The notes: generated from the letters alone by a model not told the origin. A stretch of DNA of 64,000 nt from an uncultured Actinomycetes bacterium (GCA_963709345.1 CAVPVX010000007.1:512001-576000); one strand, 5' to 3'. Counted from the first letter of the stretch, positions 2,360 through 62,793 are shown. Translations and numbers: made by a program.

Positions 2360-2366
2360 ACGCGGG

Positions 2367-2759
2367 TCACTTCTCGCCCGGCGCGGCCGGCGGATCGTCG
2401 GGCAGGAAGGACGATACTTCGGCGAGGAAGGTTTCGGGATTGATCGGCTTCTCCATGTAGCCGTTGCACCCGGCTGAGAGGATCCGCTCGCGGTCGCCGG
2501 CCATGGCGTATGAGGTGACAGCGACGATGGGCGTGCCTGCGAGTGCGGGATTGCGCCGCAGTTCGTCGGCGACCGCGTAGCCATCCATGACCGGCAGTTG
2601 GATATCCAGCAGGATCAATGCCGGCCGCAGGTCCTCGGCCAGGCGGATGCCCTGCGCACCATCGAGCGCCGCCGTCACCACATGGCCGCCCTTCTCCAGG
2701 ATGAACGCTTCCAGGTAGAGGTTCTGCTCGTTGTCTTCAATGATCAGGATGTCCGCCAC
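2367..2759 (-). CDS. Single-domain response regulator (CheY/DivK-like)
   Basis: GTG start, VADILIIEDN...LLDIQLPVMDG...VAVTSYAM...YMEKP. Overlaps the upstream kinase stop. Confidence 0.9.
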   Translation of the reverse strand: MADILIIEDNEQNLYLEAFILEKGGHVVTAALDGAQGIRLAEDLRPALILLDIQLPVMDGYAVADELRRNPALAGTPIVAVTSYAMAGDRERILSAGCNGYMEKPINPETFLAEVSSFLPDDPPAAPGEK

Positions 2760-4367: not shown

Positions 4368-5681
4368 CTACGCGAGAGTGAAGAAGAAGGTTGCGCCCTC
4401 TTCGGGCCTGCCTTCTGCCCAGATGCGTCCGCCGTGCTTCTCGATGATCCGCTTCACCGTTGCGAGCCCGATGCCGGTTCCCGCGAATTCCTCGTCGGAG
4501 TGGAGGCGCTGGAACGCGCGGAACATGTGCGACGCAAACTGCATGTCGAAACCTGCTCCATCATCACGGACGAAGATCGCCCGTTCGCCCTCGACGGCGA
4601 CCGTCCCGACCTCAATCGTCGCGCGGGGGTGCTTCGAGGTGAACTTCCAGGCGTTCCCAAGCAGATTCGCGAGCACGCTTTGCAGCAAGACGACATCGGC
4701 TGAGACGATGATGTCGGGTTCGATCCGCCACTCGGCCTCCCGCTCGGGCGCACCCGCGCTCAGGCCCCCGGCGACGCGCCTCGCCACCTCGGATAGGTCG
4801 ACATCCGTTTGCCGCACCTCCGCCTGCGCAACGCGTGACAACGCAAGCAGAGCATCGATCAGGCCGGCCATCATCTGGCTCGCCCTGCGGATGCGGACCA
4901 AGTGTCCCTTGCACGTCTCGTCGAGCGCGTCCCCGCAGTCCTCGAGGAGTGCGGCCGAGAAGCCGTCCAGTGCGCGCAGCGGAGCGCGCAAATCGTGGCT
5001 GACGGAGTAGGAGAAGGCTGTCAGATCCTGGTTCGCCGCCTCGAGCTGGGCCGTGCGCTCGGCGACGCGCCTCTCCAGCGTCTCGTTCAAACGGCACACC
5101 TCGGCCTCCGCCTGCTCGCGCGCGGCGATGTCCAGCTCGAGATCGCGGTTGAGGCGCTCCAGTTGCTCCATCTTGGACTCAAGCTTGCGGATGAGTGTCT
5201 CACTGTACTGCTTCAGATAGGCGTGCTCCCCTTCACCGCCTGGCTCTGCCGTGAGCGGCTCCGGCTCGCCGACCCCTGTCGCGGCCGGCACGACGAGGGG
5301 CTTCCCGACCTCCTGGATGGTCTCCCGGACGATCGCCATGAAGTCATCCGGCTCCTGCGGCTTGACAATGAAGCGCTGGGCGCCGAGGCTGAGGGCGAAC
5401 TCCCGGTCCCGCTCGTCGGTGTACGTCGCAGTGTAGAAGACGAGCGGTATCGATCCCAGGTGCGCGTCCCGCTTCCACTCGCGGCATAGGGCGAACCCGT
5501 CCATGACCGGCATGAGGATGTCGGTGATGATCATGTCCGGAGGCCGCTGCCGCGCGGCTTTGAGCGCCTCGACGCCATTGGCGGCTTCGACCACCTCGTA
5601 GCCGCTGGCCTCCAACAGGACACGCAGGAGATAGAGATTCTCCTCCCTGTCGTCCACGATCAGGATGCATTGTGCCGTCAT
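4368..5681 (-). CDS. REC-HisKA-HATPase hybrid kinase
   Basis: MTAQCILIVDD REC domain, FSYSVSHDLRAPLR, NLLGNAWKFT, GTGIGLA. ATGA overlap with the upstream gene. Confidence 0.92.
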   Translation of the reverse strand: MTAQCILIVDDREENLYLLRVLLEASGYEVVEAANGVEALKAARQRPPDMIITDILMPVMDGFALCREWKRDAHLGSIPLVFYTATYTDERDREFALSLGAQRFIVKPQEPDDFMAIVRETIQEVGKPLVVPAATGVGEPEPLTAEPGGEGEHAYLKQYSETLIRKLESKMEQLERLNRDLELDIAAREQAEAEVCRLNETLERRVAERTAQLEAANQDLTAFSYSVSHDLRAPLRALDGFSAALLEDCGDALDETCKGHLVRIRRASQMMAGLIDALLALSRVAQAEVRQTDVDLSEVARRVAGGLSAGAPEREAEWRIEPDIIVSADVVLLQSVLANLLGNAWKFTSKHPRATIEVGTVAVEGERAIFVRDDGAGFDMQFASHMFRAFQRLHSDEEFAGTGIGLATVKRIIEKHGGRIWAEGRPEEGATFFFTLA

Positions 5682-8299: not shown

Positions 8300-8616
8300 G
8301 ATGCGCCGGGTTGCCGCAGGGGACCGTGGAACCGTTGGACGGGCATCCGTCCGCGCCCCCTTCCAAGGCGGAACGATTGGCCTGCGCAAACCGCGCACTT
8401 CCTGCTCAGGCGACCACACCCTCAGACCATTGCTCTACAGCATCTACCCCCGAGAGCGCCGAGACAACGTTGGACCTTAGATCGCCAGGGAGGCGACACG
8501 CCGTGCCCAGGCGACGAACGGCCGCCGCCAGTGTCGCCATGTAGCACAAGGCGTACCTTGATGCTCATGCCGTGACGGCCGCGCGTCTCGCCCGGCCGCG
8601 GGTGCCGAAGGGGGGC

Positions 8617-40960: not shown

Positions 40961-41046
40961 GCTGATGCCGGCCGCCACGGCCGCTTCGAGCGTGGTCACG
41001 TCACCGGAGGCGAGCGCGATTCCAGTCTCCCGATAGACGCCTTCAT
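40961..41046 (-). pseudogene. Degenerate 5' fragment of a macro-domain gene paralog
   Basis: MKASIG/xTGIALASGDVTTLE-AVAAGI aligns to (M)KTSVGKTKLELASGDITALE...GVAGAI of 35864-36400, with a 1-nt deletion and an internal deletion. Confidence 0.6.
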
Positions 41047-41165
41047 GTGGCCGCCACTCTACGGGCTGCGCGGGGATCCGCGTTGGCGGCACGACACCGT
41101 GCGCCGCTCGCGCCCATCCGGTCCTCTTGTGCCCGCCACGCTTCTGCATAGACAATACCCAGATC

Positions 41166-42494
41166 ATGAATCGGAACCACAGCAGCGTCATCGATGCCCT
41201 GATGATCGCCATCGTCGTACTGCTCGGCATCATGGTCTTCTCGTCGCTCGTCCTGCCGGGTCTGCCCCGATGGGGGCTCTACCTCTCTCTGGGGGGGCTG
41301 GCCGGCGTCGCCATGGCACTCGCCCTGGCGCGCTGGATCACCCGCCCCGACCAGCTGCGTGCCCAGCAGAGCCACGGCATACTCGAGATCGCCGACGAGA
41401 GCCTCGCACATCTTCGCCGCGGCCTCGGAGAGGAGACGGCACAGGCGGTCTGCCACATCGTCCTCGAGCGAACGGACGCGGCGGCAGTCGCCATCACGGA
41501 CACGACACGGATCCTCGGATTCTCGGGAGTCGGCGAAGGCCACCACCTCGTGGGCAGCCGCATCCTGACCGAGGCGACTCGCGCGGCGGTCGACTGCGAC
41601 GAGATGCGCGTGCTGCGCACGCGTGACGAGATCAACTGCTCGCACGACAAGTGTCTGCTTCGAGCCGGGATCGTGGTCCCGCTGCACGTACGCAAGCGAC
41701 CGGTGGGAAGCCTCAAGTTCTACTACACGACGCCGCGCCTGCTGAACGAGACACAGCTTGCCATGGCCGAAGGCCTCGCCCACCTGCTCTCCACCCAACT
41801 CGAGCTCTCCGAGCTCGACCACCAGACGGCCCTTGCCTGCCGCATGGAGCTCAAGGCGCTTCAGGCTCAGATCAATCCGCACTTCCTCTTCAATACGATC
41901 AACACGATCGCCAGCCTCATTCGCACTGACCCCCCGCATGCGCGCGAGCTGCTGCGTGAGTTCGCGGCCTTCTACCGGAGCTCACTTGAGATGAGCGAAG
42001 ATCTGATAACGCTCGAGCAGGAGATCGGCTACGTGCGCGCCTACTTCCTCTTCGAGGAGGCGCGCTTCGGCGACCGTGTGGACCTCTCTGTCGATGTCCA
42101 CCCGGCGCACCTCGATCTTCTCCTGCCCGCCTTCGCCCTGCAGCCGCTCGTCGAGAACTCGATCCAGCACGGCATGCGCGCGGACGCCGCGTTGCACATC
42201 GCGGTGACCTCCGGTTTCGACGGTGATCTCGCGACACTGAGCGTCACCGATGACGGCGTGGGCATGGGAGCTGAGGACCTGGAGCGCATCCTCGAACCGG
42301 GGTTCGGCAAGGGCAGCGGCATCGCCCTCAAGAACGTGCACGAGCGTCTCCGTGGCCACTTCGGGCCGGGCTCCGGAGTCTCCGCGACCAGCAGCGCCGG
42401 CTCCGGGACCCGCATCACCCTCGTGATCGTCGGCCCGTCCATGGCCGAGACGCGATCTCGCGTCGATCTGGCCGCTCACGGAACCGTACGCTGA
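41166..42494 (+). CDS. LytS/YehU-type sensor histidine kinase (2 TM, GAF-like, His_kinase)
   Basis: ELKALQAQINPHFLFNTIN, EEARFGDR, LQPLVENSIQHG, GIALKNVHERL. Confidence 0.92.
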   Translation: MNRNHSSVIDALMIAIVVLLGIMVFSSLVLPGLPRWGLYLSLGGLAGVAMALALARWITRPDQLRAQQSHGILEIADESLAHLRRGLGEETAQAVCHIVLERTDAAAVAITDTTRILGFSGVGEGHHLVGSRILTEATRAAVDCDEMRVLRTRDEINCSHDKCLLRAGIVVPLHVRKRPVGSLKFYYTTPRLLNETQLAMAEGLAHLLSTQLELSELDHQTALACRMELKALQAQINPHFLFNTINTIASLIRTDPPHARELLREFAAFYRSSLEMSEDLITLEQEIGYVRAYFLFEEARFGDRVDLSVDVHPAHLDLLLPAFALQPLVENSIQHGMRADAALHIAVTSGFDGDLATLSVTDDGVGMGAEDLERILEPGFGKGSGIALKNVHERLRGHFGPGSGVSATSSAGSGTRITLVIVGPSMAETRSRVDLAAHGTVR

Positions 42495-42507
42495 GGAGGA
42501 CCACGGC

Positions 42508-43336
42508 ATGGCATCGGTCTCCTCTGCTGAAGGCGCTGATCGTCGACGACGAAGCCCCCGCACGCTCCGAACTCCGCTTCCTTCTTGCGGAGGCGGGCGG
42601 CGTCGAGGTCGTCGGCGAGGCCGGCAGCGCGTCCGAAGCACTGCAACTGATCGCCGCCATCGAGTACGACGTCATCTTCCTCGACATCGAGATGCCCGGC
42701 CTCAGCGGATTGGATCTCGCCAAGACGCTACCCACCACCAAGCCATCGCCGGCCGTCATCTTCGTGACCGCCTACAGCGAACATGCGCTCGAGGCGTTCG
42801 AGGTGGCGGCCACCGACTACATCGTCAAGCCGGTGAGCCTTGCCCGCCTGCGTCTTGCGCTCGCCCGGATCGCCGCGGCCTGCAGCGGCGTCGAGGCGAT
42901 CGCGCCTGCCGGGGCGCCCGATGCCGCTCTGGGCGATCCCCGCCGTGCGGAGCCCGAGCCGAGCGGACCGGAAGCGCGGACGGCCACGGAGGGCGCCGTC
43001 CGCATCGAGCGCGTCGCCGTGGGGAAAGGCAGCCGCACCCTGCTCATCGCCGCCGAGGACATCCTCTACGTAGAAGCGGAGGACGACTACTCGCGCGTCT
43101 ACACCACCGATGGCCGCTACCTCTCGGGCGTGCCGCTGACCATACTCGAGACACGCCTTGAGCCCCTCGGCTTCTTCCGCGTGCATCGCAGCTACCTTGT
43201 CGACCTCGCGCGCGTGCGCGAGGTCCTGCCGATGTACGGCGGAACGCTGACGCTTCTGCTGAGTGACGACGCGGGAACCCAGATACCCGTATCGCGTCGT
43301 CGCGCGGCGGCCGTCAAGCTCGCCCTCGGAATCTGA
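42508..43336 (+). CDS. LytTR-family response regulator (1-nt frameshift just after the start)
   Basis: ATG after GAGGAGG is out of frame with LKALIVDDE..IFLDIEMP..FVTAY..KP and FFRVHRSYLV..IPVSRR. Confidence 0.88.
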
Positions 43337-43345
43337 GTTCCACGG

Positions 43346-43409
43346 GCTGCGGCGAGCGGCCGACGGCCGCTCCGCTGCGGCAAGCGGCTGGCGCACGCCG
43401 GTAAGTGGC
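43346..43409 (+). promoter_or_regulatory. Direct repeats, candidate LytTR binding sites
   Basis: GCTGCGGCGAGCGGC (43346) and GCTGCGGCAAGCGGC (43374). GGCAAGCGGC (43379) and GGTAAGTGGC (43400) are 21 bp apart. Confidence 0.45.
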
Positions 43410-43590
43410 GGGTGCGGCGCGCGGGCCACGATCCCGCCGTCCGCCTTGTGTGGATCGCCGCCCACCAGCCGCCACTCCCCACTGGCCGAGTCGACCTCGC
43501 CCCCCCTCCCCGCCTTGGCTATGGTCCAGTGCACTCGTGATCTGGTCCAGCGACCGACTGAACCGCAGTCGGAGGAGAGGGGTGACAGGC

Positions 43591-44088
43591 ATGGTCAAGC
43601 TCGTTGTCACAGGCGCCGCGGAGGATGTGAACCTGGCCGATCTCGGAGAGATCCAGCACTCCGTACAGCGCATCCTGCTGGCGACGGACGGTTCCGAGCC
43701 GGCCGTGCGCGCCACGCAGTACGCAGTCATGCTCGCCAAGCTGTTCAGCGCGGGCATTACGGCGATCTACGTCGACACCGGCACGGAAGACATAGAGCTG
43801 CCCACCGAGACCATGGCGGACGACGTCTTCGAGGGCGTGCATCCCTCGGCAAAGGGGCTCGTCATCGCGCACATGCTCGCCCGGGCCAACGACGTGGACT
43901 GCACCGTCGAGATCGTGCGCGGCGGCATCGCGAAGCGCATCGTGCACACGGCCGAGGATCTCGGCGTCGGCCTCATCGTTCTCGGCGACACCGGCCGCAC
44001 CGGCCTCCGGCGTATCGCTCTGGGGTCGGTCGCGGAGGCCGTCGTCAAGGGGTCGTCGATCCCCGTACTTGTCGTCAAGGGCGAATGA
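43591..44088 (+). CDS. Universal stress protein
   Basis: ILLATDGS, LIVLGDTGRTGL..LGSVAEAVV..PVLVVK. Confidence 0.92.
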   Translation: MVKLVVTGAAEDVNLADLGEIQHSVQRILLATDGSEPAVRATQYAVMLAKLFSAGITAIYVDTGTEDIELPTETMADDVFEGVHPSAKGLVIAHMLARANDVDCTVEIVRGGIAKRIVHTAEDLGVGLIVLGDTGRTGLRRIALGSVAEAVVKGSSIPVLVVKGE

Positions 44089-44102
44089 GGGAGGAGGCGA
44101 GA

Positions 44103-44528
44103 ATGGAACCCAAAGTGGAAAGCCAAGGGGCAGTCATGGCGGGAGATGCTCCCAGCGATCCGTCACAGCACACCAGACACGGCGACCACGTCGACACGGT
44201 CGAGAGTGTCGACCGGGTCTTCCTGCGGCAGCGTCGCCTGAGCTTCTCATTCGGCGCGGTGTTCTTCGCAGTCACACTGCTGATCCCCGCGTTCACCGTC
44301 TGGTGGCCGTGGTGGTGGTCAGTCAAGATCTGGGGCGGATTCACAGCGAACTACCTCTTCGTGTCCCTCCTCTACTTCGTCTTCCTCTGGGTGATGGCGT
44401 GGACCTACGCAGCACGTGCGGACAAGCTCGACAGCGAACTCGGCTGGATGAACGCGGAAGAGATGCAGGAGCTCGAGATCGAGCAAATCAGGGCGACTGC
44501 TGCGGAGCTTGAAGGGGAGACCACATGA
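44103..44528 (+). CDS. DUF485 two-TM protein (ActP partner)
   Basis: Two TM helices and WTYAARADKLD. ATGA overlap with the symporter. Confidence 0.8.
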   Translation: MEPKVESQGAVMAGDAPSDPSQHTRHGDHVDTVESVDRVFLRQRRLSFSFGAVFFAVTLLIPAFTVWWPWWWSVKIWGGFTANYLFVSLLYFVFLWVMAWTYAARADKLDSELGWMNAEEMQELEIEQIRATAAELEGETT

Positions 44529-46393
44529 ACACCACTGCAATCGTCCTGGTCGCCGCCCTGGTGATCGTCACCATCAGCTTGTCGATCTTCTCGCAGCGGT
44601 TCACCCGCACGACCAGCGATTTCTATCTTGCCGGCCGCAAGGTGGGGTCGTTCACCAACGCGTCGGCCATCTCGGGCGACTATCTGTCGGCCGCCTCGTT
44701 CCTGGGAGTGGCCGCCGCAGTCTATGCGTCCGGTCTCGACGGCGTGTGGTACGCGGCCGGCTTCGCCGGCGGCTTCATGGTCGTCGTCCTGTTCATCGCG
44801 AGCGCCTTGCGGCGTTTCGGCGAATACACCGTGGCGGACTTCTCCTTTGGCCGCTTCAGGTCCAACCGCATCAGGCTGATCACGGTACTGGCCGTCCTCA
44901 TGGTGTCGCTCTTCTACATGGCGCCACAGATGTACGGCGCCGGCGCGACCTGGAAGATCCTCGTCGGCAAGGGTTTCTTCCCCGCCAACGAAGCCGGGCT
45001 CTTCCTCGGCGTCGACCCCGCCTACCTCTCAGGCGTCACGGTCGTCGCCGTGATCATGATGTTCTACGTGGCCGTGGGTGGCATGAAGGGCACTACGCTG
45101 AACCAGGTGATCCAGTTCTGGTGGCTGTGGCTCGCCATGTTCATTCTCGTCGCCTTCGCCGTCGGCGGTGGGTTCAACTACGCGTCCAACCTGCGCACGG
45201 CCAGCGACGGTCGACTCGTCGAGGTCAAGACGCTGACGATCGAGCAGGCGACGACACCGAACCCGGCGACGGGGAAGACGCCGCTCGAGATGGCCGAGTC
45301 ATCCATGAAGCCGGAGTCGTTTGCGGCCGTCCAGGCGACCATCGATTCCGGAGACACCGCGGCCACGGTCAGCCTCCTCATCCCGGCCGCCAACAAGCTG
45401 CACGAGACGAAGCAGGTGTTCAATCAGCCCGGTCACCGCTACAACGCCTTCGACCAGTTCTCCATGGTGCTGGCGCTGGTGCTCGGGACCGCCGGTCTGC
45501 CGCACATCCTCAATCGCTACTACACCAACCCGTCGGGTAGGGCAGCGCGCCGCTCGACGTTCTGGGTGCTCATCCTCATCGGCACCTTCTACATCATGGC
45601 ACCGATCATCGGTCTCTTCGGTCGCCTCGAGATCTTCACGAGGTACTTCGAGGGCACCGCGCCGACGAACGCCGCATATGTGGACGGCTACCTGGCCAAG
45701 TCAGATGCCCTGATGCCGACGCTGGCGCAGATCCTCGGCGGCCAAGGACTGCTCGGCATCGTGGCTGCAGGCGCCTTCGCCGCGATGTTCTCCACCATCG
45801 GCGGTCTGCTCATCGCTTCCGCTTCGGCCGTCGGCCACGATGTGTACGAGAAATACATCAACCCCAATGCATCACAGCGACGCCGTGTGTGGGTCGGTAA
45901 GATCTCGGTCATCTGCTTCTCGCTTCTGGCGTGGTTCCTGGGCTGGTGGATCGCCTACGCCGGCCTTGCGAACGTGTACCCGGCTCTCATCGCCATGATG
46001 GTCACGTGGGCCTTCGCCATCGGCGCGTCGACCTTCGTCCCCATGCTGCTCACGGGCATCTGGTGGAAGGGCACGACCGAGCGCGGCGCCCTCACGGGCA
46101 TGATCATAGGCCTTCTCGGCTCGGTCGGGATCATCGTCCTCAACGTCTTGCAGCAGACTGAAGTGATCGGGAAGACAGGCGTGGTGGGGTTCTTCGGCGC
46201 TCTCACCTTCCCGGTGCTGGTCACGTTCCCGTTGGCGCTCATCGCCACCATCGTCGTGAGCAAGATCGACGGGAAGGTGCCGGACAACATCGACTCGATC
46301 TGGATGCGCATCCACGGCACGGCATCCGAACGCCATGAGAAGCAGCTCGGCCTCGACAAGGTCGGCAGCCTGTTGGGCACGAAGAAGTCGTGA
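44525..46393 (+). CDS. actP: Cation/acetate (monocarboxylate) symporter, SSS family
   Basis: DFYLAGR, NASAISGDYLSAASFLG, GGMKGTT, GTAGLPHIL, AFAAMFST. Confidence 0.88.
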   Translation: MNTTAIVLVAALVIVTISLSIFSQRFTRTTSDFYLAGRKVGSFTNASAISGDYLSAASFLGVAAAVYASGLDGVWYAAGFAGGFMVVVLFIASALRRFGEYTVADFSFGRFRSNRIRLITVLAVLMVSLFYMAPQMYGAGATWKILVGKGFFPANEAGLFLGVDPAYLSGVTVVAVIMMFYVAVGGMKGTTLNQVIQFWWLWLAMFILVAFAVGGGFNYASNLRTASDGRLVEVKTLTIEQATTPNPATGKTPLEMAESSMKPESFAAVQATIDSGDTAATVSLLIPAANKLHETKQVFNQPGHRYNAFDQFSMVLALVLGTAGLPHILNRYYTNPSGRAARRSTFWVLILIGTFYIMAPIIGLFGRLEIFTRYFEGTAPTNAAYVDGYLAKSDALMPTLAQILGGQGLLGIVAAGAFAAMFSTIGGLLIASASAVGHDVYEKYINPNASQRRRVWVGKISVICFSLLAWFLGWWIAYAGLANVYPALIAMMVTWAFAIGASTFVPMLLTGIWWKGTTERGALTGMIIGLLGSVGIIVLNVLQQTEVIGKTGVVGFFGALTFPVLVTFPLALIATIVVSKIDGKVPDNIDSIWMRIHGTASERHEKQLGLDKVGSLLGTKKS

Positions 46394-46396
46394 CTA

Positions 46397-46823
46397 CTGA
46401 CATGTAGAGTCGTCTGTCAAGTGCCCCAAGACCACGAGCCCCTGCCAAGGGGCTCGTGGTCTTTCCTCGGCCGAAGCTCGGGTGAGCGCGCACGACCTGT
46501 GGCGACGTGCGGTCAACGCTGATACGTGCGTGTTCGGGTATTCGCATGACCGTGTGCGTCGGGAGCCGGCCGCTGGTCTGAGATCGGGCGTCGCCCACCG
46601 GGGCGGCCCAAAGCGCAGTCGCGGATGCTCCGCGCGCCGAGCGTGCGCGCTCGCTCGAGTGCGCCGGGTCTGTCGTGCCAGGCTTTCCGACCTCCATGAC
46701 GGCCGGGCTCCAGCACCAGCCGGCGAGCTCGCAGGCCACGGCCACGGCGCTCACCGTGGGACGCTTGCCGCGGCCATCGAGCGCCGCCCAGGGACGGTGC
46801 AGGTGCCGGCTCGCCCGTGGCAC
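46397..46823 (-). mobile_element. IS110-family (IS1111-type) remnant: transposase C-terminal fragment plus ~290-nt right non-coding end
   Basis: RHLHRPWAALDGRGKRPTVSAVAVACELAGWCWS resembles the IS110 C-terminus (GK...VAVARELAGWCW). The structured downstream region ends CACTTGACA-N-CATGTCAG. Confidence 0.7.
46428..46466. terminator. Strong hairpin (bidirectional terminator) after actP, inside the IS end
   Basis: AAGACCACGAGCCCC-TGCCAA-GGGGCTCGTGGTCTT, a 15-bp perfect stem. Confidence 0.75.
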
Positions 46824-46887
46824 AGGACGGATGCAGGTGCGCCATCCCGGCGGGGCGGGGGCGCCGGGCGCGGCCTTGCCGCGACGG

Positions 46888-47697
46888 TCAGCGCTTGCGG
46901 CGTTTGCGCCCGCCGCGCGGTGCGGAGGCGCGCTTCTCGGCCGGCCGGGGCTCCACGGTGATGCCGACCGCGACCGCCGCCTTGATGCGCGCCACGCGGA
47001 GCCGCTCGAGCACGGCGAGGGCGAGGTCGATCGCCGTCTTGGCGACGAGGATCACAGCGAGCCCGGCGACCGCCGAGCCGAAGAACCAGTAGACGAGGAG
47101 ACCGCCGACGAGCACGCCGAACTGCAGGACGAAGAGCCGGCGCAACGGCTCGGACACGGTGGCCGCCGGCGGCACCACGGCCGCCTCGCGGCCGCGCACG
47201 AAGTCGAGGTAGTAGACGGCGGCGCGCGCCAGGATGAGGCCGGCGGCGACCGCCCAGAATTGCCAGGTCGCGAAGGGGCCGCCGGGGTCGGCCGGCGCCT
47301 CGCCCCCCGGCTTGAGCAGGCGGCCGCTGAAGACCATGTACGCGATGAGGACCATCGCCGCCATCACGACGAGGTAGGTGCGCAGGAACTCGCGCACGAG
47401 CACCTGGTCGCGCTGGTCGGCGGCCGCCCCGGCAGCCCATGAGGCTCGTGCCCGCAGCCAGGCGAAGACACCGTCGGCGAGCCCGTCGATGACGCAGATG
47501 ACGACGACGGCCAGGACCGTCCAGGCACCGGTGACCGCGGCCCACACCGCGGCGACATCGGCCGCGACGATGAGCGCGAAGCCGGGCAGCGCCCGGGCGA
47601 GCGTCGAGGCGCTGCGCACCGGCGCCTCCGGCGCAGCGCCGTCCGCGCTCGCCGGGAGCCCGGATGCCGCTTCGTTCCCGGTCGAGCGATCGGTCAT
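46888..47697 (-). CDS. DUF6498-like integral membrane protein
   Basis: About six TM helices, EPLRRLFVLQFGVLVGG, ILVAKTAIDL. Confidence 0.6.
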   Translation of the reverse strand: MTDRSTGNEAASGLPASADGAAPEAPVRSASTLARALPGFALIVAADVAAVWAAVTGAWTVLAVVVICVIDGLADGVFAWLRARASWAAGAAADQRDQVLVREFLRTYLVVMAAMVLIAYMVFSGRLLKPGGEAPADPGGPFATWQFWAVAAGLILARAAVYYLDFVRGREAAVVPPAATVSEPLRRLFVLQFGVLVGGLLVYWFFGSAVAGLAVILVAKTAIDLALAVLERLRVARIKAAVAVGITVEPRPAEKRASAPRGGRKRRKR

Positions 47698-47919
47698 GCG
47701 TCTCCCCTGCAAAGACCGCGCCGGAGAAACCGGCGCGGGCTGCGCTCAGGGTATGCGGGCGCGGCGCGAAAGGCAACGCGGGCTCCCGCCCGTCCGTCCC
47801 CGCGCCCACCGGGACAACCGTCCTCGGACCGCCGCTCCAGCACGACGACTCCGCGACCGATACTATCTCCGCGTAGGCCGACGCGCAGAGGCGTGGCCGC
47901 AGGCGAGAGCGGAGGGCAG

Positions 47920-49428
47920 ATGGCGCAGTCCGAGAGCGGGCCCGACCCGAGACGGTGCACGCTCAGCGTGCCCAACGACCTCGCGTTCATCCCCATGGTC
48001 CAGGGATTCGTGAGCGCGTACGCGGCGGGGGCGGGCTTCGGCGCCGCCGACCGGGCACGCCTCGACCTCCTCATGGAAGAGGCGGCGACGAACGTCATCC
48101 AGGGGGCCTTCGCCGCCGACGAACGCGCCGGCTTCGACATCACCTGCGAGCGCGTGCCCGCCGGGATGCAGATCACCGTGCACGACGAGGGCATGCCGTA
48201 CGACCCGTCGCTGACGCCCGAGTACGACCCCGGCGCCGACCTCCACAGCCAGACCGGCGCCGGCCTGGGCAGCTTCCTGATGAAGCAGATCGCCGACACC
48301 GTCGCGTTCCACAACCTCGGCAGCCGCGGCAAGGAGACGGTGTTCATCAAGTACCTGGACAGCGAAGCGGTCACCGGCGCCCCGCCCGCGGAAGAGGCGC
48401 CGGTGGAGCCACCGGAGCCGGTGCCGGCGACCGAGCGCGCGCAGTTCGAGCTCGGCCCGCTGCGTCCCGAGCAGGCGATCGAAGTGTGCCGCTGCATCTA
48501 CGACGCCTACCGGTACACCTACGTGAACGAGCACCTCTACTACCCCGACCGCGTCGTCGCGCTCAACGAGAGCGGCGACATGGTCTCCGCGGTCGCCAGC
48601 ACCGGCGAGGGTGAGGTCGCGGGGCACGCCGCCCTCGTCTTCCCCGCGGACACCCACGAGGTCGCCGATCTCGCGGTCGTGGCCACCAAGGCGAAGTTCC
48701 GCGGCCAGTCCATCGCACGGCGTCTCGGCGAGTACCTCGACCAGGAGGCTCTCACGCGGGGGCTCCACGGCCTCTTCATAGAGGAAGTCACGGTGCACAC
48801 CTACACGCAGAAGTTCTGCCATCACCTGGGGTTCGCCGACTGCGGCTTCCTGCTCGCCTACTCCCCGGCGACGATGGCGTTCACGGGCATCGCCGCGGAA
48901 GCGGCCGCGCGCCGCTCCGTGATCCTGGGGTTCAAGTATCTCGACGCGCCGCCGGGCGGGACGGTGTACGCTCCGCAGCGCCACCGAGACATGATCGCCG
49001 GCATCTACGCGCGGCTCGGCGCGCCGGTGACCCTGGCCGGCGACACCGGCGCCGACCCCGACGGCCTCCCCATCCTGCACGTCAACGTGAACCCGAAGCG
49101 CTCGGTCGCGACCATCCGCATCCCCACGTACGGGCGCCACCTGAGGCAGCGCATCCGCGCCGAGCTGCTGCGGCTGCTGCGCGAGAACGTGAGCGTCGTC
49201 AACGTGTTCCTCGACCTAAGCACGGCCGGCACGGAGAAGGTGGCCGCCGATCTCGAGGACGCCGGCTTCATCTTCACCGGCGTCCTCCCCGGTGGCCGCT
49301 CCGGCGACTGGCTGATCATGCAGTACTTCAACGGGGTCGTCGTAGACTACGACGCGATCCAGGTCGAGGATGCCTTCACCCGCGACCTGCTCGGCTACAT
49401 CCGCGGCAACGACCCGCGCGAGGGGTGA
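47920..49428 (+). CDS. RsbW-like ATP-binding (HATPase_c_2) domain fused to GNAT acetyltransferase domain(s)
   Basis: EEAATNVI, DEGMPYDP, GAGLGSFLMKQIAD, then GNAT motif A VVATKAKFRGQSIA and a further C-terminal alpha/beta domain. Confidence 0.82.
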   Translation: MAQSESGPDPRRCTLSVPNDLAFIPMVQGFVSAYAAGAGFGAADRARLDLLMEEAATNVIQGAFAADERAGFDITCERVPAGMQITVHDEGMPYDPSLTPEYDPGADLHSQTGAGLGSFLMKQIADTVAFHNLGSRGKETVFIKYLDSEAVTGAPPAEEAPVEPPEPVPATERAQFELGPLRPEQAIEVCRCIYDAYRYTYVNEHLYYPDRVVALNESGDMVSAVASTGEGEVAGHAALVFPADTHEVADLAVVATKAKFRGQSIARRLGEYLDQEALTRGLHGLFIEEVTVHTYTQKFCHHLGFADCGFLLAYSPATMAFTGIAAEAAARRSVILGFKYLDAPPGGTVYAPQRHRDMIAGIYARLGAPVTLAGDTGADPDGLPILHVNVNPKRSVATIRIPTYGRHLRQRIRAELLRLLRENVSVVNVFLDLSTAGTEKVAADLEDAGFIFTGVLPGGRSGDWLIMQYFNGVVVDYDAIQVEDAFTRDLLGYIRGNDPREG

Positions 49429-49521
49429 GGCGGGCGAGGCCGGCCTGGCGCGGGCGGCAGGAAGGCGGAGGCCCGCGCCCCGCGCGCGCAGCCGCACACC
49501 CACGCCACACGGCCACGCGAG

Positions 49522-49851
49522 CTACGCGAGAAGCGCCAGCGCCTCCACGCGCCCGGGCGCGATCGCGAACAACTCCGAGAACCCCGAGATCGTGAAGACG
49601 TCTTCGACGAAGGGCTGCATGGCGCAGAGCACGATACGCCCTTCGTTCTTCTCGAGGAACTTGAGCACGGTCAGAAAGACACGCAGACCGGCGCTCGACA
49701 CATACTCGGTGCCGCCGAAGTCGGCTGCGATCCGGCGCGCGCCGGCGTCGAGCAACTCCTTGAACCCGGCCTCGATGTCGCTGGCGCTGGTAGTGTCGAT
49801 CCTCGCGGGGAGCGTCACCACCGTGACGTTCTCGACGACCTCTACGTCCAT
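49522..49851 (-). CDS. STAS anti-sigma-factor antagonist
   Basis: RIDT, EYVSSAGLR (phospho-Ser), VFTISGF. Confidence 0.92.
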   Translation of the reverse strand: MDVEVVENVTVVTLPARIDTTSASDIEAGFKELLDAGARRIAADFGGTEYVSSAGLRVFLTVLKFLEKNEGRIVLCAMQPFVEDVFTISGFSELFAIAPGRVEALALLA

Positions 49852-49965
49852 TCGTCCTCCCATCGCTGCGTGCCCGCCTCCACCGTCTCGGCAGCGGCGC
49901 CCACTCGGTCGTCTATCTTCCCTGAGGGCTGCGAGGGCGGCAAGCGTGTCGCATCCGCGCCCCCA

Positions 49966-51948
49966 TCAATCCGTGCCGCCATCCCCGACCGGCGGCCGCG
50001 TCTTGCCCTCGCCCCGACCCGCTCGTGGGCCCAGGTACCGGAACGCGACCATGGTGATGTCGTCGGACTGCTCGACGCCCTCCGCGTAGCGGGTGAGATC
50101 CGCGAGGAGCCCCGTCAGCATGTCGCCACAGGAGCGGTCGCGCAGCCGGCCCAGCGTCTCGCCGAGACGGTCTTCGCCGTAGACCTGATCGACGGCGTCC
50201 ATGGCCTCGCTGACCCCGTCGGTGTAGAGGAACAGCGTGTCGCCCGGCACCATGTCGAGCGTTCCCTCAGCGTAGACGAGATCCGCCTTCGCGCCAAGGG
50301 CGACGCCCCTCACGCGAGGCAGCTGACAGGCCGCACCGCCGCCCGCGGCCACAACGAACGGGCGGTTGTGCCCGGCGCTGGCGTAGGTCATCGCGCCGAT
50401 CCGCAGATCGACCACTGCGAGGAACATGGTGACGAACATGCACTCGTCGTTGTCGGCCGCAAGCTCGTCGTTCACCTTCGCGAGCGTCTCCCCGGGCCCG
50501 TCGCCCTCTCGCGCGAGCGAACGCAGGAACGAGCGCGTGACCGCCATGAGCAGCGCCGCCGGCACGCCCTTGCCGGAGACGTCGGCGATCGCCAGACAGA
50601 GGTGGTCGTCGTCGAGCAGGAAGAAGTCGTAGAAGTCGCCGCCGACTTCGCGCGCCGGGTCGAGCAGCGCGTACAGCTCCAGGTCGTCGCGCTCCGGATA
50701 CGGCGGGAACGTCCGTGGCACGAGGCTCGTCTGGATGGACGCGGCGATGCGCAGCTCGCTCTCGATGCGTTCGCGCGCCGCGGTCGTCAAGCGCAGCTGC
50801 TCGATGTGCGCCTGCAGGTCGTCGCGCATGTGCGCGAACGAGGCCGTGAGTTGGGCGACCTCGTTGCGCCCCTTCGCCTGCGGCAGGGGGGCGTCCAGGT
50901 CGCCCTGGGCGAGCGTGCGCGTCGCCGCATCCAGACTGTGCAGCGGCCGAGTGATCGACTTGGCGACGAGCAGGGCGATGATCAGCAGCGCCGCGATGCC
51001 GGTGAGCGAGATGCCCCACTGGATGCGGCTCAACGCGATCACGTCGCCCTCGATCTCACTGTCGGCGTAGACGATGCCCAGCGACCAGCCGGTCGAAGGG
51101 ATGGGCATGTAGGCCAGATACGATGGCTCCCCGGGCGTGATAGCTCCCAGCCCGGCGAAATCGGCGGAGCCGCTGCCGCCGTCCACCATCCGCCGACCGA
51201 TGCCCCGCAGCACCGGGTCGTCCCGCTCCTCGGCGACGCTGAAGACCGACTCGTTCATGATGAACTCGCGGCGTGGATGGGCGATGAAGGTGCCGTTCCT
51301 GCTGACGAGGAAGGCGTAGCCGGTCTCGCCGAGGTCGAGACCCTCCAGCAACGCCGTGAGCCACGTCAGCGAGACGTCGCCGGTGACCACCGCCGAGACG
51401 GGCTCCGGATCGCCCTCCAGGCGTACCGGGATCGCGTACGTCGCCATCACCATGTCGGCGCCGCCCTCGTCGTAGTACGGCTCCGTCCAAACGGCCTCGT
51501 CCATCTGGTACGGCAACTGGAACCAGTCGCCGGCTTCGAAAGCGCGGCCGCCGGCGGCCAGGTCCTTCACGACCACGCTGCCGTCGCGCTTGAAGGCGTA
51601 GGGCGCGAACCGCGCCGAAGCGGTCGGCCGGTACCCGATCGCCGAGCCGGTCAGCTCGTCGTTCCCGGCCACGGCGCGACGCAGCAGCGCCTCGGCGCGC
51701 CCGGCTCCGGGGTCGAGATCGTCGACCGACAGGGCGAGGCCCTGGATGATCTTCTCGACGTTGCTCTCGACCGTCTCGATACGGTTGGCGGTGGCCTTGA
51801 GCGTCTGCCGGATCTCGGCCTGCTGGCGCTTCTCCAGGAGGTCGCGCGCCGACAGGTACGTGTACAGGCTGACCGCGGCGAGTACGAGTCCGGCGCCGAG
51901 CACCACGAGCACCGTGATGCGCCAGGCGATGCTCAGATCACGGAGCAC
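49966..51948 (-). CDS. dCache-HAMP-SpoIIE (RsbU-like PP2C) membrane phosphatase
   Basis: TM, Cache (WTEPYYD), TM, HAMP, EVGGDFYD, IADVSGKG, SAGH, YTDGVSE, DDITM. GTG 51948 follows GGAGG. Confidence 0.92.
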   Translation of the reverse strand: MLRDLSIAWRITVLVVLGAGLVLAAVSLYTYLSARDLLEKRQQAEIRQTLKATANRIETVESNVEKIIQGLALSVDDLDPGAGRAEALLRRAVAGNDELTGSAIGYRPTASARFAPYAFKRDGSVVVKDLAAGGRAFEAGDWFQLPYQMDEAVWTEPYYDEGGADMVMATYAIPVRLEGDPEPVSAVVTGDVSLTWLTALLEGLDLGETGYAFLVSRNGTFIAHPRREFIMNESVFSVAEERDDPVLRGIGRRMVDGGSGSADFAGLGAITPGEPSYLAYMPIPSTGWSLGIVYADSEIEGDVIALSRIQWGISLTGIAALLIIALLVAKSITRPLHSLDAATRTLAQGDLDAPLPQAKGRNEVAQLTASFAHMRDDLQAHIEQLRLTTAARERIESELRIAASIQTSLVPRTFPPYPERDDLELYALLDPAREVGGDFYDFFLLDDDHLCLAIADVSGKGVPAALLMAVTRSFLRSLAREGDGPGETLAKVNDELAADNDECMFVTMFLAVVDLRIGAMTYASAGHNRPFVVAAGGGAACQLPRVRGVALGAKADLVYAEGTLDMVPGDTLFLYTDGVSEAMDAVDQVYGEDRLGETLGRLRDRSCGDMLTGLLADLTRYAEGVEQSDDITMVAFRYLGPRAGRGEGKTRPPVGDGGTD

Positions 51949-52948
51949 CGCGAGCCTCCGGCGCAACGAAGCGCTCATAGGACGGCGCGTCGGCTATCTG
52001 CCCCTCGCCGATCATGATCGCCCGGGTGCGCTCGTAATCGACACGCGAGAGCACGCCCGGCTGCCAGGAGTCGTTCTCGCCGGGGTAGACGGCCCTGAGC
52101 ACATGCTCGAGCATCCAGCTCTGGTGTGCACGGTTGGTGGGCACGTGCTCCGCCTGCGCCCGGCGCATGACCATCGTCACGGCCTTCTCGGGGTGGTCCC
52201 GGCAGTACCGCCAGCCCTCGAGCGTCGCCGCGGCGAACTCGCGGCACAGGCCGGGACTCCGCCGCTGCGTCGACGCCAGCGCGTACACGCCGTCCTCGGG
52301 GAAGTCGAAGCCGGCCTCGCGCAGGCTGAATGCCGTGAGCTCGTCGGGGTCGACCCCGGCCTGCAGGATGGTGTGGTACTCGTTGTACTCCATCGCCGCG
52401 CACGCCGTGACTCCTCCGCGCAGGAACAGGTTCACGGTGTAGTACTGCGGCACGAGTTCGGGCTCGACGTCCGCCGTGCTGAAGTAGCCGAGGTAGGCGG
52501 CCTGGAAGCTCGTTCCCCAGAGGCTGACCCGCTCGCCGTCAAGCGCCTCGCGGCCCGCCACCGCTCCACGCCGGGCCACCAGCAGGAGGTTCGAGCGGTT
52601 CACGATCTGGCTCACGCACACCAGCGGCTCACCCTCCTCCGCTGCCGCCATGGCGCCGCTGAGGAATGATGTCGCGAACTCAGCGCGGCCGCTCCTGAGC
52701 TCGGCGATCGGGTCGATGCCGGGGCCGCCGGAAAGGATCTCGACGTCGAGCCCGTGGTCGCGATAGAAGCCCTGCTCCGCGGCGGCGTAGTAGCCCGCGA
52801 ACTGGGTTTGGGGCTCCCACTGCAGGACGAGCCGGACCTGCTCGGGGCGAGACGCGCCCTCGGCCGGCCCACCGCGCGTCCCCGCGGCGACGAGAGCGGC
52901 GCCGCAAAGGCAGAGCGCCGCGACGGCGGCGAGGATCCGGCGGATCAT
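51938..52948 (-). CDS. NMT1/THI5-like substrate-binding protein
   Basis: Signal peptide, LQWEPQTQFAGYYAAAEQGFY..GLDVEILSGGP, ATLEGWRY. Confidence 0.88.
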   Translation of the reverse strand: MIRRILAAVAALCLCGAALVAAGTRGGPAEGASRPEQVRLVLQWEPQTQFAGYYAAAEQGFYRDHGLDVEILSGGPGIDPIAELRSGRAEFATSFLSGAMAAAEEGEPLVCVSQIVNRSNLLLVARRGAVAGREALDGERVSLWGTSFQAAYLGYFSTADVEPELVPQYYTVNLFLRGGVTACAAMEYNEYHTILQAGVDPDELTAFSLREAGFDFPEDGVYALASTQRRSPGLCREFAAATLEGWRYCRDHPEKAVTMVMRRAQAEHVPTNRAHQSWMLEHVLRAVYPGENDSWQPGVLSRVDYERTRAIMIGEGQIADAPSYERFVAPEARGAP

Positions 52949-53382
52949 GTCCGTCTGATGACGAGCCGGAGCACGTTGCGCGAGCCGTCACGCACATAGG
53001 CGACTTCGTCCATCACGCGACGCACCAGGAAGATCCCAAGTCCGCCGACGGGGCGGTCCTCGACGCCGCCGAGCACGTCGGGCTCTTCGGCCTCGAGCGG
53101 GTCGAAGGGCACGCCCTCGTCGACCAGTTCGACGACGAAGCGCTCGTCCTCCGGCGCGACCCGGACCAGCAGTTCGCCTGGCGGCACCTCGTACGCGTAG
53201 AGGCAGATGTTGACGACGGCTTCTTCCACAGCCAGCTCGAGTTGCATCAGACGACGCGGGTGAAGGCCCCACACGGAGGCTTCACCGGCGATCAGCGCGA
53301 TGATGTCCGGGACGGCCTCGGTGCGCGCCGCGAACACCCTCTCCACTCCGGCCGGGCCCACGTCGCTCTCTCCGCCTGCCAC
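52945..53382 (-). CDS. RsbW-like serine kinase/anti-sigma ATP-binding protein
   Basis: ELAVEEAVVNI, DEGVPFDP, GGLGIFLVRRVMDEV, N.L. Confidence 0.9.
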   Translation of the reverse strand: MAGGESDVGPAGVERVFAARTEAVPDIIALIAGEASVWGLHPRRLMQLELAVEEAVVNICLYAYEVPPGELLVRVAPEDERFVVELVDEGVPFDPLEAEEPDVLGGVEDRPVGGLGIFLVRRVMDEVAYVRDGSRNVLRLVIRRT

Positions 53383-53467
53383 TCCCTCACCCCCTGGCTA
53401 CGAACCGGCCGACCGCGCATCTTGGCGGCCGGCCCGGGCACGCTCACTTCGTGCCGGACGGCGCCGG

Positions 53468-56070
<2,603 letters not shown>

Positions 56071-56074
<4 letters not shown>

Positions 56075-56505
56075 GCCTCGACCTCCCCGTTCTGGATGTC
56101 GATCTTGCGCGCGCCCGACTCGTGCGGCTTGAGGATGAGCCGCACCTCGAGCACGCCCGCCTCGTACGTCGCCGTCGTCACCTCCGGATCGACGTCGACC
56201 ATCAGGCGCACGCGGCGCTCGAAGGGGCCGTAGTCCATCTCCACCTGCTGATAGACCCTGCCTTCGCGGGTCGGGAACGAGCGTTCGCCGCGCACCACGA
56301 GCTCGCGCCGGTCGACCAGCAGTTCGATGTCTTCCATCGCCAGGCCGGCCAGCTCGAAGCGCACCACGATCTCCTGGGTGTCCTCCTCGAAGTAGGCGTC
56401 GGCCGCGGGGCGAAAGCCGCGCCCCCGGTACTGCTGTCTGGTCGCGACCACACACGAATCATTGAAGGCGCGCAGCACCTCGTTGTGCAGCTTCTCGACA
56501 TCCAC
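56071..56505 (-). CDS. Hsp20/alpha-crystallin family protein
   Basis: FRPAADAY, ELAG, VRGER, YGPFERRV, ATYEAGVL, RKIDI. Translationally coupled to lon. Confidence 0.9.
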
Positions 56506-60732: not shown

Positions 60733-62550
60733 CTACTCCTCGACGGCGCGGCCCTTGCCGCGACGCATGAGCACCACGACCAGCACGATCACGACCAGCA
60801 CGGCGACCACGCCGAGGATGATCCACGTGGTCGAGGACGATGCGCTGGTGCTCTCGGCGGCGACCTTCGGCTTGAGGTTCACGTAGGTGTCGATGTTGAA
60901 GGCGTTGAGGAACGAGAGGCCGCCCAGGAACGGCACCCAGCCGTCCCACCTGGCCGTGTTGGCTATCTCGAGGGTGTCGGGATACGTCATGGCGATCTGC
61001 GGGCTCTCGTCGTAGAAGATCTGCTGCAGACGGTGGATCGTGTCGAGGCGCGTCGCCTTGTCGATCTGGCTGAACTGCTCTTCGCACAGCCGGTCGTACT
61101 CGGCGTTCGACCAGCAGGGATCGTTCCACCACTCGATCTGGGCGGTGGTGAACGATGCCAGCGTGTCACCCGGGTCGGCGTAGCCGGCGTAGCTCCACAG
61201 ATAGACGTCGTAGTCGGGTGCGTAGGCGCCGGACTTGTCGTAGTTGTAGAGGGCGTCGGAGAGGGCACCGTCCTCCACCACGCTGTACTTGATGTCGAGA
61301 CCGCACTCCTTGAACCAGCCGGCGATCAGCTTGCCCTGTGACTGGCTCTCGGCCGACTGTGTGCGCGCCGCGAGACGCAGCCTGATGTTCTTGCCTTTGT
61401 ACTCGCGGATGCCGTCGCCGTCCGCGTCGACGTAGCCGGCGGCGTCGAGCAGCTGGTTGGCCTTGGCGATGTCGAAACCGTAGGCCTCCTCGGCCGTGGG
61501 CTCGTAGTGGGCGTCGAAGTCGTCCGGCCACTCGCCGGGCGGCATGATCGAGGTGGCCGGTCGCGCGTACCCGTTCCAGCCGATGGCGACGAGTCGCTCC
61601 TTGTCCACGGCCCAGTTGAGCGCTTGCCGGAACTTCACGTCCCTGAGGATAGGGTGGCCGAGGGAGCTGGGCTGGTCGTAGCAGTTGAAGCAGATGTAAT
61701 CCCACGTGTACAGGTTGCCCTTGAAGCCCTGGAAGCCCTCCAGGTTCGCGACCTGGTCGTACTGAGCCGGCGGGACGCCGTAGGCGGCGTCGATGGCGCC
61801 CATCTTGAGGTCCTGTGTCATCGTGTCGGCGTTCGTGTAGAACTCGAAGAGGATCTCGTCGACGGCCGGCGCAGCGCCCCAGTAGCTGGGATTCCTGGTC
61901 ATGCGGATGTAGCTGCCGCGCTTCCACTCGTCGATCACGAAGGGTCCCGAGCCGACGAACGGGTAGGTCACCTTCTCCTTCTCCGGCTTGGCGACCTTGG
62001 ACCAGATGTGCTCGGGGAAGCAGTAGATGTACAGCCTCTCCATGTTGGCCTTGGGCTTGCTGCACCTCACCTCGCAGGTGGTGTCGTCGATCGCCACGGC
62101 CTCTTCGATGAGCTTGGTGTACGAACTGTAGGCGGCAAGGTTGTTCTCGATGATGTAGTTGTAGCTGAAGGCCACGTCCCCGGCGGTCACGGGCTCGCCG
62201 TCGCTCCACACGGCCCCCTCGCGGATCTTGAACGTCCACGTCTTGCCGTCCGGCGAGACGCTCCAGCTCTCCGCGATACCCGGCACCGGGCTGCCGTCCT
62301 CGGCGCCGTACCCGATGACGAAGTCGTAGTTGAGGCACCACGTCTCGAAGCCGATGGTGCCGTAGCCGACGAACGGATTGAGGCTGTCGGGCTGCTCCAT
62401 CGTGCCGATCTTGAGAACGACCTTCTCGCTGCCGGACGCCGGCGAGGCGCTCTCGGCCGACGATGAAGCGCCGCCCCAGACGAGCCCTGCGGAGAGCAGG
62501 ACCGCCACCACCAGAACAATGGTCGTGAGCCCCTTGCGAGTACGCCTCAT
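60733..62550 (-). CDS. Family-5 (peptide/nickel) ABC substrate-binding protein with a C-terminal TM anchor
   Basis: PDSLNPF, IAESW..SPDGKTWTF..WSDGEPVTAGDV, VGSGPF, DADGDG, C-terminal TM plus basic tail. Confidence 0.92.
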   Translation of the reverse strand: MRRTRKGLTTIVLVVAVLLSAGLVWGGASSSAESASPASGSEKVVLKIGTMEQPDSLNPFVGYGTIGFETWCLNYDFVIGYGAEDGSPVPGIAESWSVSPDGKTWTFKIREGAVWSDGEPVTAGDVAFSYNYIIENNLAAYSSYTKLIEEAVAIDDTTCEVRCSKPKANMERLYIYCFPEHIWSKVAKPEKEKVTYPFVGSGPFVIDEWKRGSYIRMTRNPSYWGAAPAVDEILFEFYTNADTMTQDLKMGAIDAAYGVPPAQYDQVANLEGFQGFKGNLYTWDYICFNCYDQPSSLGHPILRDVKFRQALNWAVDKERLVAIGWNGYARPATSIMPPGEWPDDFDAHYEPTAEEAYGFDIAKANQLLDAAGYVDADGDGIREYKGKNIRLRLAARTQSAESQSQGKLIAGWFKECGLDIKYSVVEDGALSDALYNYDKSGAYAPDYDVYLWSYAGYADPGDTLASFTTAQIEWWNDPCWSNAEYDRLCEEQFSQIDKATRLDTIHRLQQIFYDESPQIAMTYPDTLEIANTARWDGWVPFLGGLSFLNAFNIDTYVNLKPKVAAESTSASSSTTWIILGVVAVLVVIVLVVVLMRRGKGRAVEE

Positions 62551-62793
62551 GGTGTCCCCCTTGGTTGCGCCCGACGGAGCCGAGCGAGCCTGGTTCCCCC
62601 GCGAGGTGCGAACCCATGTGCCTCCCCTCGCGCTCCCCAACCGTCTCTCAGTAGGTTACCGTCCGGGTCCGGTGCTGTCAGCAGGCGATACTTGGGCAAA
62701 CTTGGCCGCGAGCGTCTTGTGTGTGGTGCCCGGGCTCGCGTGGCTGAGACCAAGGCCGGCCACGGCGGCCGCGGCGCGTCTTTCCGTCCGACG

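Follow-up and report, generated by a model that had tools for sequence, protein, structure and literature searches.

The window analysed here, a stretch of 64,000 nucleotides (nt) from an uncultured actinomycete (C7:512001-576000 of a 3.1-Mb genome with a completeness of 98%), carries five genes whose products appear to form a partner-switching system. They encode a stand-alone serine kinase, an extracytoplasmic solute-binding protein, a membrane phosphatase, a STAS protein and a protein that joins a second RsbW-like domain to a GNAT acetyltransferase. Judged by sequence comparison, the locus is a real and widespread variant of partner switching that is apparently undescribed and whose mechanism we infer. 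It combines known kinds of system: partner switching, binding-protein-aided sensing and regulated GNATs. We favour the reading that it is a partner switch whose extracellular sensor consists of two proteins and which, in this lineage, also has an acetyltransferase arm, and our confidence in this is evenly poised between belief and doubt. The nearest named relatives of the window genes are in metagenome-assembled genomes of Thermoleophilia (Actinomycetota), G+C content is ~70% across the 64 kb, and the fusion protein is 88% identical to its counterpart in locus L003. The genes, in the order of the operon followed by the fusion, are:

52945-53382, minus strand: RsbW1, a stand-alone RsbW/SpoIIAB-type serine kinase of 145 amino acids (Pfam HATPase_c_2, 90 bits, profile 1-126 of 127)
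51938-52948, minus strand: NMT1/ThiY-type extracytoplasmic solute-binding protein of 336 amino acids, the candidate co-sensor (Pfam NMT1, 106 bits)
49966-51978, minus strand: membrane phosphatase of 670 amino acids, with the order transmembrane segment 1, dCache, transmembrane segment 2, HAMP, PP2C/SpoIIE (Pfam dCache_1 72, HAMP 50, SpoIIE 162 bits)
49522-49863, minus strand: single-domain STAS protein (RsbV/SpoIIAA type) of 113 amino acids (Pfam STAS, 62 bits)
47920-49428, plus strand, reading frame open from 47893: RsbW-like/GNAT fusion of 502 amino acids (Pfam HATPase_c_2 56 bits, Acetyltransf_1 32 bits)

Pfam recovered all five genes with the domains that the initial annotation had claimed for them, the fusion gene converging on a four-gene operon. 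The overlap it had described among the kinase, binding-protein and phosphatase genes amounts to 4 nt between the first two and 41 nt between the second and third. A gap of ~103 nt separates the phosphatase from the STAS gene, and 93 nt lie between the stops of the convergent STAS and fusion genes. Details of that annotation needed correction: the four operon genes are read from the minus strand, ATG 47920 is the most likely start of the fusion, and the STAS protein may start at ATG 49851, which would make it 109 amino acids long. All starts of open reading frames (ORFs) are predictions. That at 47920 is favoured by the lengths of the closest homologues, mostly 500-506 amino acids, and by a GGAGG upstream. 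A promoter and terminator scan of 46500-54000 gave no promoter-like site and three terminator-like sites against 1.5 expected, none of them between the convergent genes.

The core of the switch is predicted to be complete. Aligned to Bacillus subtilis RsbW (6m36), RsbW1 retains the N-box E..N, the DEG..FD box and the GGLG box. The YVSSAGL stretch of the window STAS protein aligns with FMDSSGL of SpoIIAA (1th8_B), which we take to hold the phosphorylated serine. In the phosphatase, Pfam places dCache_1 at residues 50-302, HAMP at 337-390 and SpoIIE at 456-648 (profile 1-191 of 192), and the stretches GGDFYD, DVSGKG, TDG and DDIT, presumably the metal ligands of a PP2C/SpoIIE domain, can be read in the translation of the last. 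By these motifs, all intact, the window encodes a full set of RsbW kinase, STAS protein and PP2C phosphatase.

On the input side, gene order strongly supports the proposal of the initial annotation that the binding protein is a subunit of the Cache sensor. A metagenome contig scan with an alignment of eight binding-protein orthologues gave at least 554 relatives, of which the best 80 loci were kept. These cassette loci, picked solely on binding-protein likeness, range in G+C content from 33 to 71%; several of the counts given here and below come from our own tblastn and hidden Markov model scans of fetched loci. A dCache homologue lay directly downstream of the binding protein, on the same strand, in all 64 loci with at least 400 nt of downstream sequence, and, among the 44 with 2.3 kb or more, a PP2C domain came next in 42. 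The two exceptions (L058:5839-8124 and L105:1715-3871) have the dCache-HAMP part fused to an adenylate/guanylate cyclase; the binding protein and dCache-HAMP thus behave as one sensing unit with an exchangeable output. An RsbW gene stood directly upstream of the binding protein in 25 of 61 cassette loci, and the 28 loci of at least 8 kb included 17 with STAS and 16 with RsbW. Across many lineages, on the evidence of gene order, the binding protein and the dCache-HAMP receptor are an obligate gene pair. The binding-protein gene is also the sole NMT1-family gene in the 98%-complete genome, and a literature search found no paper joining NMT1, SpoIIE and Cache.

The binding protein begins with a hydrophobic segment (residues 1-26), and hydrophobic segments at ~14-44 and 318-346 of the phosphatase flank its dCache domain; both sensing parts are therefore expected to be extracytoplasmic. 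The PF09084 match of the binding protein scores 106 bits against a cut-off of 20.5. Its sequence relatives in the PDB are 4nmy (E 9e-12) and ThiY, 3ix1 (E 2e-7). Even these nearest solved structures are distant, and they give no guide to the ligand, which the initial annotation supposed to be pyrimidine-, thiamine-precursor- or sulfonate-like.

Other proteins of binding-protein type were seen. Downstream of the fusion in two loci (L018:9512-14528 and L034:9491-13629) are very large proteins with three ABC_sub_bind repeats, which may be a second binding-protein-type input, and the same two loci encode proteins of 406-416 amino acids with an N-terminal STAS domain. The window itself has, at 5681-8434 (minus strand), an SBP_bac_3 domain in one chain with a PAS histidine kinase and, at 60736-62655 (minus strand), a lone SBP_bac_5 protein; there is no transporter for either in the window.

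The candidate output is the fusion protein. Its parts are:

47953-48354, plus strand: RsbW-like domain, residues 12-145 (VIA-align Z 16.9 to SpoIIAB 1l0o, 15.8 to RsbW 6m36, 15.3 to UsfX 8ih8)
48448-48939, plus strand: canonical GNAT, residues 177-340 (VIA-align Z ~14, model residues 174-347; Foldseek E 3e-8)
48958-49407, plus strand: C-terminal alpha/beta domain, residues 347-496, which folded alone with pLDDT 89.5

The initial annotation had left open whether there were one or more GNAT domains. There is one canonical GNAT, and the C-terminal domain weakly resembles half of a GNAT fold: it matched many GNATs at Z 6-7.7 over ~90 residues, and its top matches were the N-terminal domains of NUDT7 (Z 9.1) and NUDT6 (Z 8.3), with antizyme at 7.8. 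We refer to the GNAT and the C-terminal part together as the module, and a profile of the two was used to find it in the cassette loci. Homologues of the fusion fall into 86 clusters. One further protein, P0064, with a PAS domain and the module, was considered as a domain swap and not used; its junction cuts into the GNAT and its contig is possibly chimeric.

Sequence comparison supports in part the link that the initial annotation had drawn between the STAS protein and the fusion, and the link is not general. Four independent comparative lines speak for it: STAS and fusion are neighbours in several phyla, the module also occurs in split form, one protein is a triple fusion, and the fusion and the binding protein co-occur. 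A genome scan with the fusion alignment gave 38 fusion loci. Seventeen were of Thermoleophilia type, three of them too short, leaving 14 with context, and a STAS gene lay within ~2 kb downstream of the fusion in 11 of the 14, with none in L012 or L015. STAS also adjoins the fusion in 10 of 23 other loci (L018, L019, L022, L023, L024, L026, L028, L032, L033 and L034), which belong to Planctomycetota, Bacteroidota, Lentisphaerota, Auribacterota and another actinobacterium. The full cassette stands beside the fusion in three lineages; in L033 a single strand carries STAS, RsbW, binding protein, dCache-PP2C, fusion and a second fusion in that order. An archaeal locus (L037) has a PP2C-STAS-RsbW set 6 kb from the fusion. 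The last of the 14 Thermoleophilia-type loci, L040 (4770-5275), has a fusion fragment alone (residues 52-220) directly beside Lon with the whole switch operon absent, which looks like a joint deletion.

The module was also found from the side of the cassette. It is fused in L043, L045 and L046, while in L091 the contig ends within it. Cassettes L066, L076, L079 and L094 have a stand-alone module of ~340 amino acids without the RsbW-like domain; the order in L076 is MFS, module (2359-3375), STAS, RsbW (3809-4228), binding protein, dCache-PP2C. Such splitting suggests that the GNAT module, when free, can be held by a free RsbW as a sigma factor is by its anti-sigma factor. Among 151 genomes of the class, seven have the fusion, five the binding protein and four both. 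Those four are the window's own genome, two congeneric ones and a fourth from a different family. The genomes are related to one another and so are not independent.

The triple fusion, P0084, is a single chain of STAS, RsbW-like domain and GNAT module. It speaks for the STAS-fusion link and would also suit a feedback in which the GNAT acetylates the switch itself (STAS, RsbW1 or the phosphatase) and the RsbW-like domain, by homology a STAS-binding module, merely recruits the substrate. For many fusions there is neither a STAS nor an RsbW gene in the vicinity, and we regard this alternative as very improbable.

Several observations weigh against the acetyltransferase arm as the output of the switch. 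In the window the fusion gene, being convergent on the operon, is not co-transcribed with the switch. The module was found in eight of the 80 cassette loci and in four of the 28 of at least 8 kb, so the cassette as a whole must usually act via something else. An even sample of 401 Actinomycetota genomes had the module in 14, at one locus each, and STAS was within 1.5 kb in just one of these 14 loci, the window's own. Nine fused copies in one actinobacterial family have other neighbours, acetyl-CoA hydrolase/transferase in two cases and an SSF symporter in another. A second even sample, 401 genomes from the phylum to which L034 belongs, had it in 23 genomes at 27 loci, 26 of them fused; STAS was within 1.5 kb in four of the 27, and a PP2C gene in one more. 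The AF2 model of the window fusion (pLDDT 79, pTM 0.62) has a disordered linker after the RsbW-like domain and, with this linker and pTM, shows no confident contact between that domain and the GNAT. A tree of 42 STAS proteins left the window clade largely unresolved, its 91/92 fork not starred, and cannot tell whether the window STAS is of the fusion-linked kind; a Bacteroidota clade of fusion-adjacent proteins was the only one to stand out. In the gene-neighbourhood check that the initial annotation had proposed, the fusion stands with the cassette in three lineages, and most fusions of the even samples lack a nearby STAS (present in 1/14 and 4/27). Most cassettes have no module and most fusions no STAS close by; the coupling is real but facultative.

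Conservation within the fusion family bears on the direction of the signal. In 121 full-length representatives, P209, H293 and Q297 of the GNAT were kept in all 121 and Y207 in 120. R261 of the acetyl-CoA motif was kept in 114 (Q in the other seven) and G262 in 89. The motif in the window protein reads R-G-Q-S-I-A, where the canonical form has G in place of S. The RsbW-like domain is less constrained: the N-box Asn was kept in 74 of the 121 and the G2 glycines in 78-79. The GNAT residues are thus far better kept than those of the kinase, marking the enzyme as the constrained end. The pattern fits a conserved enzyme with a docking domain that has often lost catalysis.

The RsbW-like domain of the window fusion retains its N-box EEAATN, DEGMPYD box and GAGLG box, and such intact kinase motifs would allow the fusion to be an input. 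The GNAT would then sense acetyl-CoA or an acyl acceptor and tune its own kinase, so that metabolic state is written on STAS and the response goes via RsbW1. Relatives in which a 5TMR_LYT-SpoIIE gene comes right after the fusion, as if kinase and phosphatase formed a pair acting on STAS, and the acetyl-CoA hydrolase/transferase genes that flank the fusions in L123 and L124, point the same way. However, the GNAT residues are invariant in the full-length representatives, about four in ten of which no longer have the N-box Asn or the G2 glycines. Kinase output cannot be the common function of the family, and stand-alone modules with no kinase domain occur in the same cassette. We consider an input role for the fusion improbable.

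The genes around the fusion were compared more widely. Clustering of neighbour ORFs over 118 loci (L003-L120) found no conserved partner beyond the cassette and lineage synteny (Lon, succinate dehydrogenase). In L005, L006, L013 and L029 (for example L006:9565-10926) the gene after the fusion, co-directional with it, encodes the 5TMR_LYT-SpoIIE membrane phosphatase; this gene is missing from the window, where the short gap between fusion and STAS genes holds no such gene. In three low-G+C loci with no STAS nearby (L025, L031 and L038, ~7350-7870), a SnoaL_3/DUF4440 protein is encoded directly upstream of the fusion. In the archaeon Methanosphaerula (L037:3911-7986), two genes for AMP-binding proteins lie directly upstream of the fusion: one joins a LuxC-type acyl-CoA reductase to an AMP-binding domain, and the other encodes a further AMP-binding enzyme. 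Both products might be targets of acetylation and, with the acetyl-CoA hydrolase genes of L123 and L124, are weak hints towards acyl-CoA metabolism.

The initial annotation held that no sigma factor, ABC permease or ABC ATPase is encoded in the window, and a Pfam scan of 43 further ORFs in it, which include many two-component genes, bears this out. The absence of sigma genes extends to the relatives. No sigma gene was found in the 80 cassette loci by tblastn with four sigma queries of our own, a search that very divergent sigma factors could escape, and the same search found one ECF sigma in the 38 fusion loci. The further claim that the system has no direct transcriptional output is not established. 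The genome has 11 matches to the sigma-70 family, 12 to STAS and six to SpoIIE, with several other RsbW-like genes. The sigma matches include SigB/F-like genes at C7:116078-117106 and C7:105756-106562, neither adjacent to any RsbW gene. As such distal sigma factors exist, the stand-alone kinase RsbW1 could serve one, a further point against the acetyltransferase arm. Two tandem RpoD-like sigma genes, of 372 amino acids each, lie at C11:73818-74933 and C11:74969-76084.

In its strict form this alternative is a classical sigma-directed switch. The operon would act only through RsbW1, which would sequester a SigB/F-like sigma factor encoded elsewhere, and the fusion would belong to another circuit or work with another STAS protein. 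The sigma, STAS and RsbW-like genes scattered through the genome allow for it, as do the few cassettes with the module and the many fusions without a nearby STAS. The rsbV-rsbW-sigB and spoIIA operons encode the sigma gene beside the switch, in contrast to the 80 cassette loci. The recurrent links between the module and STAS or RsbW, fused, split and triple-fused, are also hard to ascribe to chance, all the more because the module is rare (14/401 and 23/401 genomes). A purely sigma-directed switch is in our view unlikely, though it deserves serious weight.

If the switch does include the acetyltransferase arm, it might work as follows. The binding protein, ligand-loaded or not, would dock on the extracytoplasmic dCache domain, and HAMP would relay the change to the PP2C domain, which would dephosphorylate STAS. 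RsbW1, and probably also the kinase-competent domain of the fusion, would rephosphorylate it. Unphosphorylated STAS would bind the RsbW-like domain of the fusion and alter the activity of the attached GNAT, the RsbW-like domain taking the role that cAMP-binding or ACT domains have in type III GNAT acetyltransferases. RsbW1 may additionally hold a distal sigma factor. The acetyl acceptor might, at a guess, be a protein lysine. The relay in full, from an extracellular metabolite through the binding protein and dCache-PP2C to the phosphorylation state of STAS and on to a protein acetyltransferase via an anti-sigma-like domain, is a tentative proposal that we hold with more doubt than belief.

The core is that of the Bacillus systems RsbU-RsbV-RsbW-SigB and SpoIIE-SpoIIAA-SpoIIAB-SigF, with a PP2C phosphatase, a STAS protein with its serine motif and a GHKL-type serine kinase, and the folds and motifs found here match the solved structures of RsbW, SpoIIAB and SpoIIAA. 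The locus departs from those systems in that no sigma gene was found at it or in the 80 related cassettes, in that the phosphatase sits in the membrane as a receptor that takes its input through dCache-HAMP and has its own binding protein, and in that a GNAT is joined to a further RsbW-like domain. Partner switches with outputs other than sigma factors are known, through STAS-only proteins such as SypA (with SypE), HsbA and BtrV. The locus resembles these in that the phosphorylation of STAS would be read by something other than a pair of anti-sigma and sigma factors. We know of no sigma-free partner switch whose output is an acetyltransferase, and a literature search found no paper linking partner switching or RsbW with GNAT or describing an RsbW-GNAT fusion.

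The Chlamydia RsbU protein carries a periplasmic sensor domain. One study describes it as the PP2C of a partner switch (10.1101/2022.05.13.491914). In Rv1364c of Mycobacterium tuberculosis, RsbU and RsbW domains share one chain, and its structure (PDB 3ke6) matches the N-terminal domain of the fusion at Z 13.6. Unlike the window fusion, neither Chlamydia RsbU nor Rv1364c has a GNAT, and to our knowledge neither has an NMT1 partner protein.

The sensor resembles LuxP-LuxQ, HptA-HptS, NspS-MbaA and CBP-ChiS, where a binding protein without a transporter of its own is encoded beside a dCache-type receptor. Receptors that work with binding proteins include, in the text of a 2021 review, chemoreceptors, sensor kinases, GGDEF/EAL proteins and a Ser/Thr kinase, with stress on dCache-type domains; SpoIIE, PP2C and NMT1 are each mentioned nowhere in that text (PMC8050422). 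The present pair differs from the LuxPQ-type systems in its receptor output, a PP2C phosphatase or in rare cases a cyclase, and in its binding protein, which belongs to the NMT1/ThiY family.

In type III GNATs an N-terminal domain controls the enzyme allosterically, as in the cAMP-GNAT MtPat (Rv0998), the ACT-GNATs and the NADP-binding MxKat; anti-sigma, HATPase, RsbW and STAS have no mention in the text of a review on bacterial acetyltransferases (PMC8556138). The fusion is like them in having an N-terminal domain ahead of a GNAT with the fold and the acetyl-CoA motif. It is unlike them in that this domain is RsbW-like and not of the cAMP, ACT or NADP kind, its expected ligand is a phosphoprotein in place of a metabolite, and a further GNAT-like domain follows the GNAT. 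The N-terminal domain may act like a type III regulatory domain, and the fusion is not a type III member as defined. Against the tandem, Eis-like GNATs of type V, the comparison turns on the C-terminal domain, whose matches to GNATs are weak beside those to the NUDT N-terminal domains (8.3-9.1).

Other features of the window lie outside the switch. A Lon protease gene (53468-56455, minus strand) is directly upstream of the operon and keeps this position in the Thermoleophilia relatives. The C-terminal tail of this Lon is Lys/Ala-rich, with AAKKPAAKK repeats and a weak match to the histone H1-like HC2 (E 0.008, residues 956-994). At 41037-46390 on the plus strand, a LytS-like kinase (GAF and His_kinase), a LytTR regulator, a Usp protein and an SSF symporter are encoded just upstream of a DUF6498 gene.

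Both of the less familiar parts of the locus are widespread. At 50% identity, the GNAT module has 3326 representatives with E <=1e-3 and 1328 with E 1e-30; most of the best 150 are ~500 amino acids long with the module beginning at about residue 170, which is the fused form, and a protein atlas gave only unnamed or generic GNAT clusters. From a single metagenome scan, the binding-protein/dCache-PP2C pair has at least 554 relatives. Partner switches are textbook regulators of sigma factors, and these two widespread parts depart from that picture. Neither the binding-protein/PP2C pair nor an RsbW-GNAT protein appears in the texts of the two reviews (PMC8050422, PMC8556138).

If our reading is right, the fusions would be regulated GNATs of a new class, under the control of a partner switch; they number at least 1328 clusters at 50% identity, spread through the bacteria, with a single copy found in an archaeon. 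The sensor pair would be a new class of binding-protein-stimulated receptor whose output is a PP2C phosphatase, and phosphatases would join the receptors that binding proteins can drive. The system would link serine phosphorylation to acetylation in prokaryotes and offer a testable handle on how acetyltransferases are regulated.

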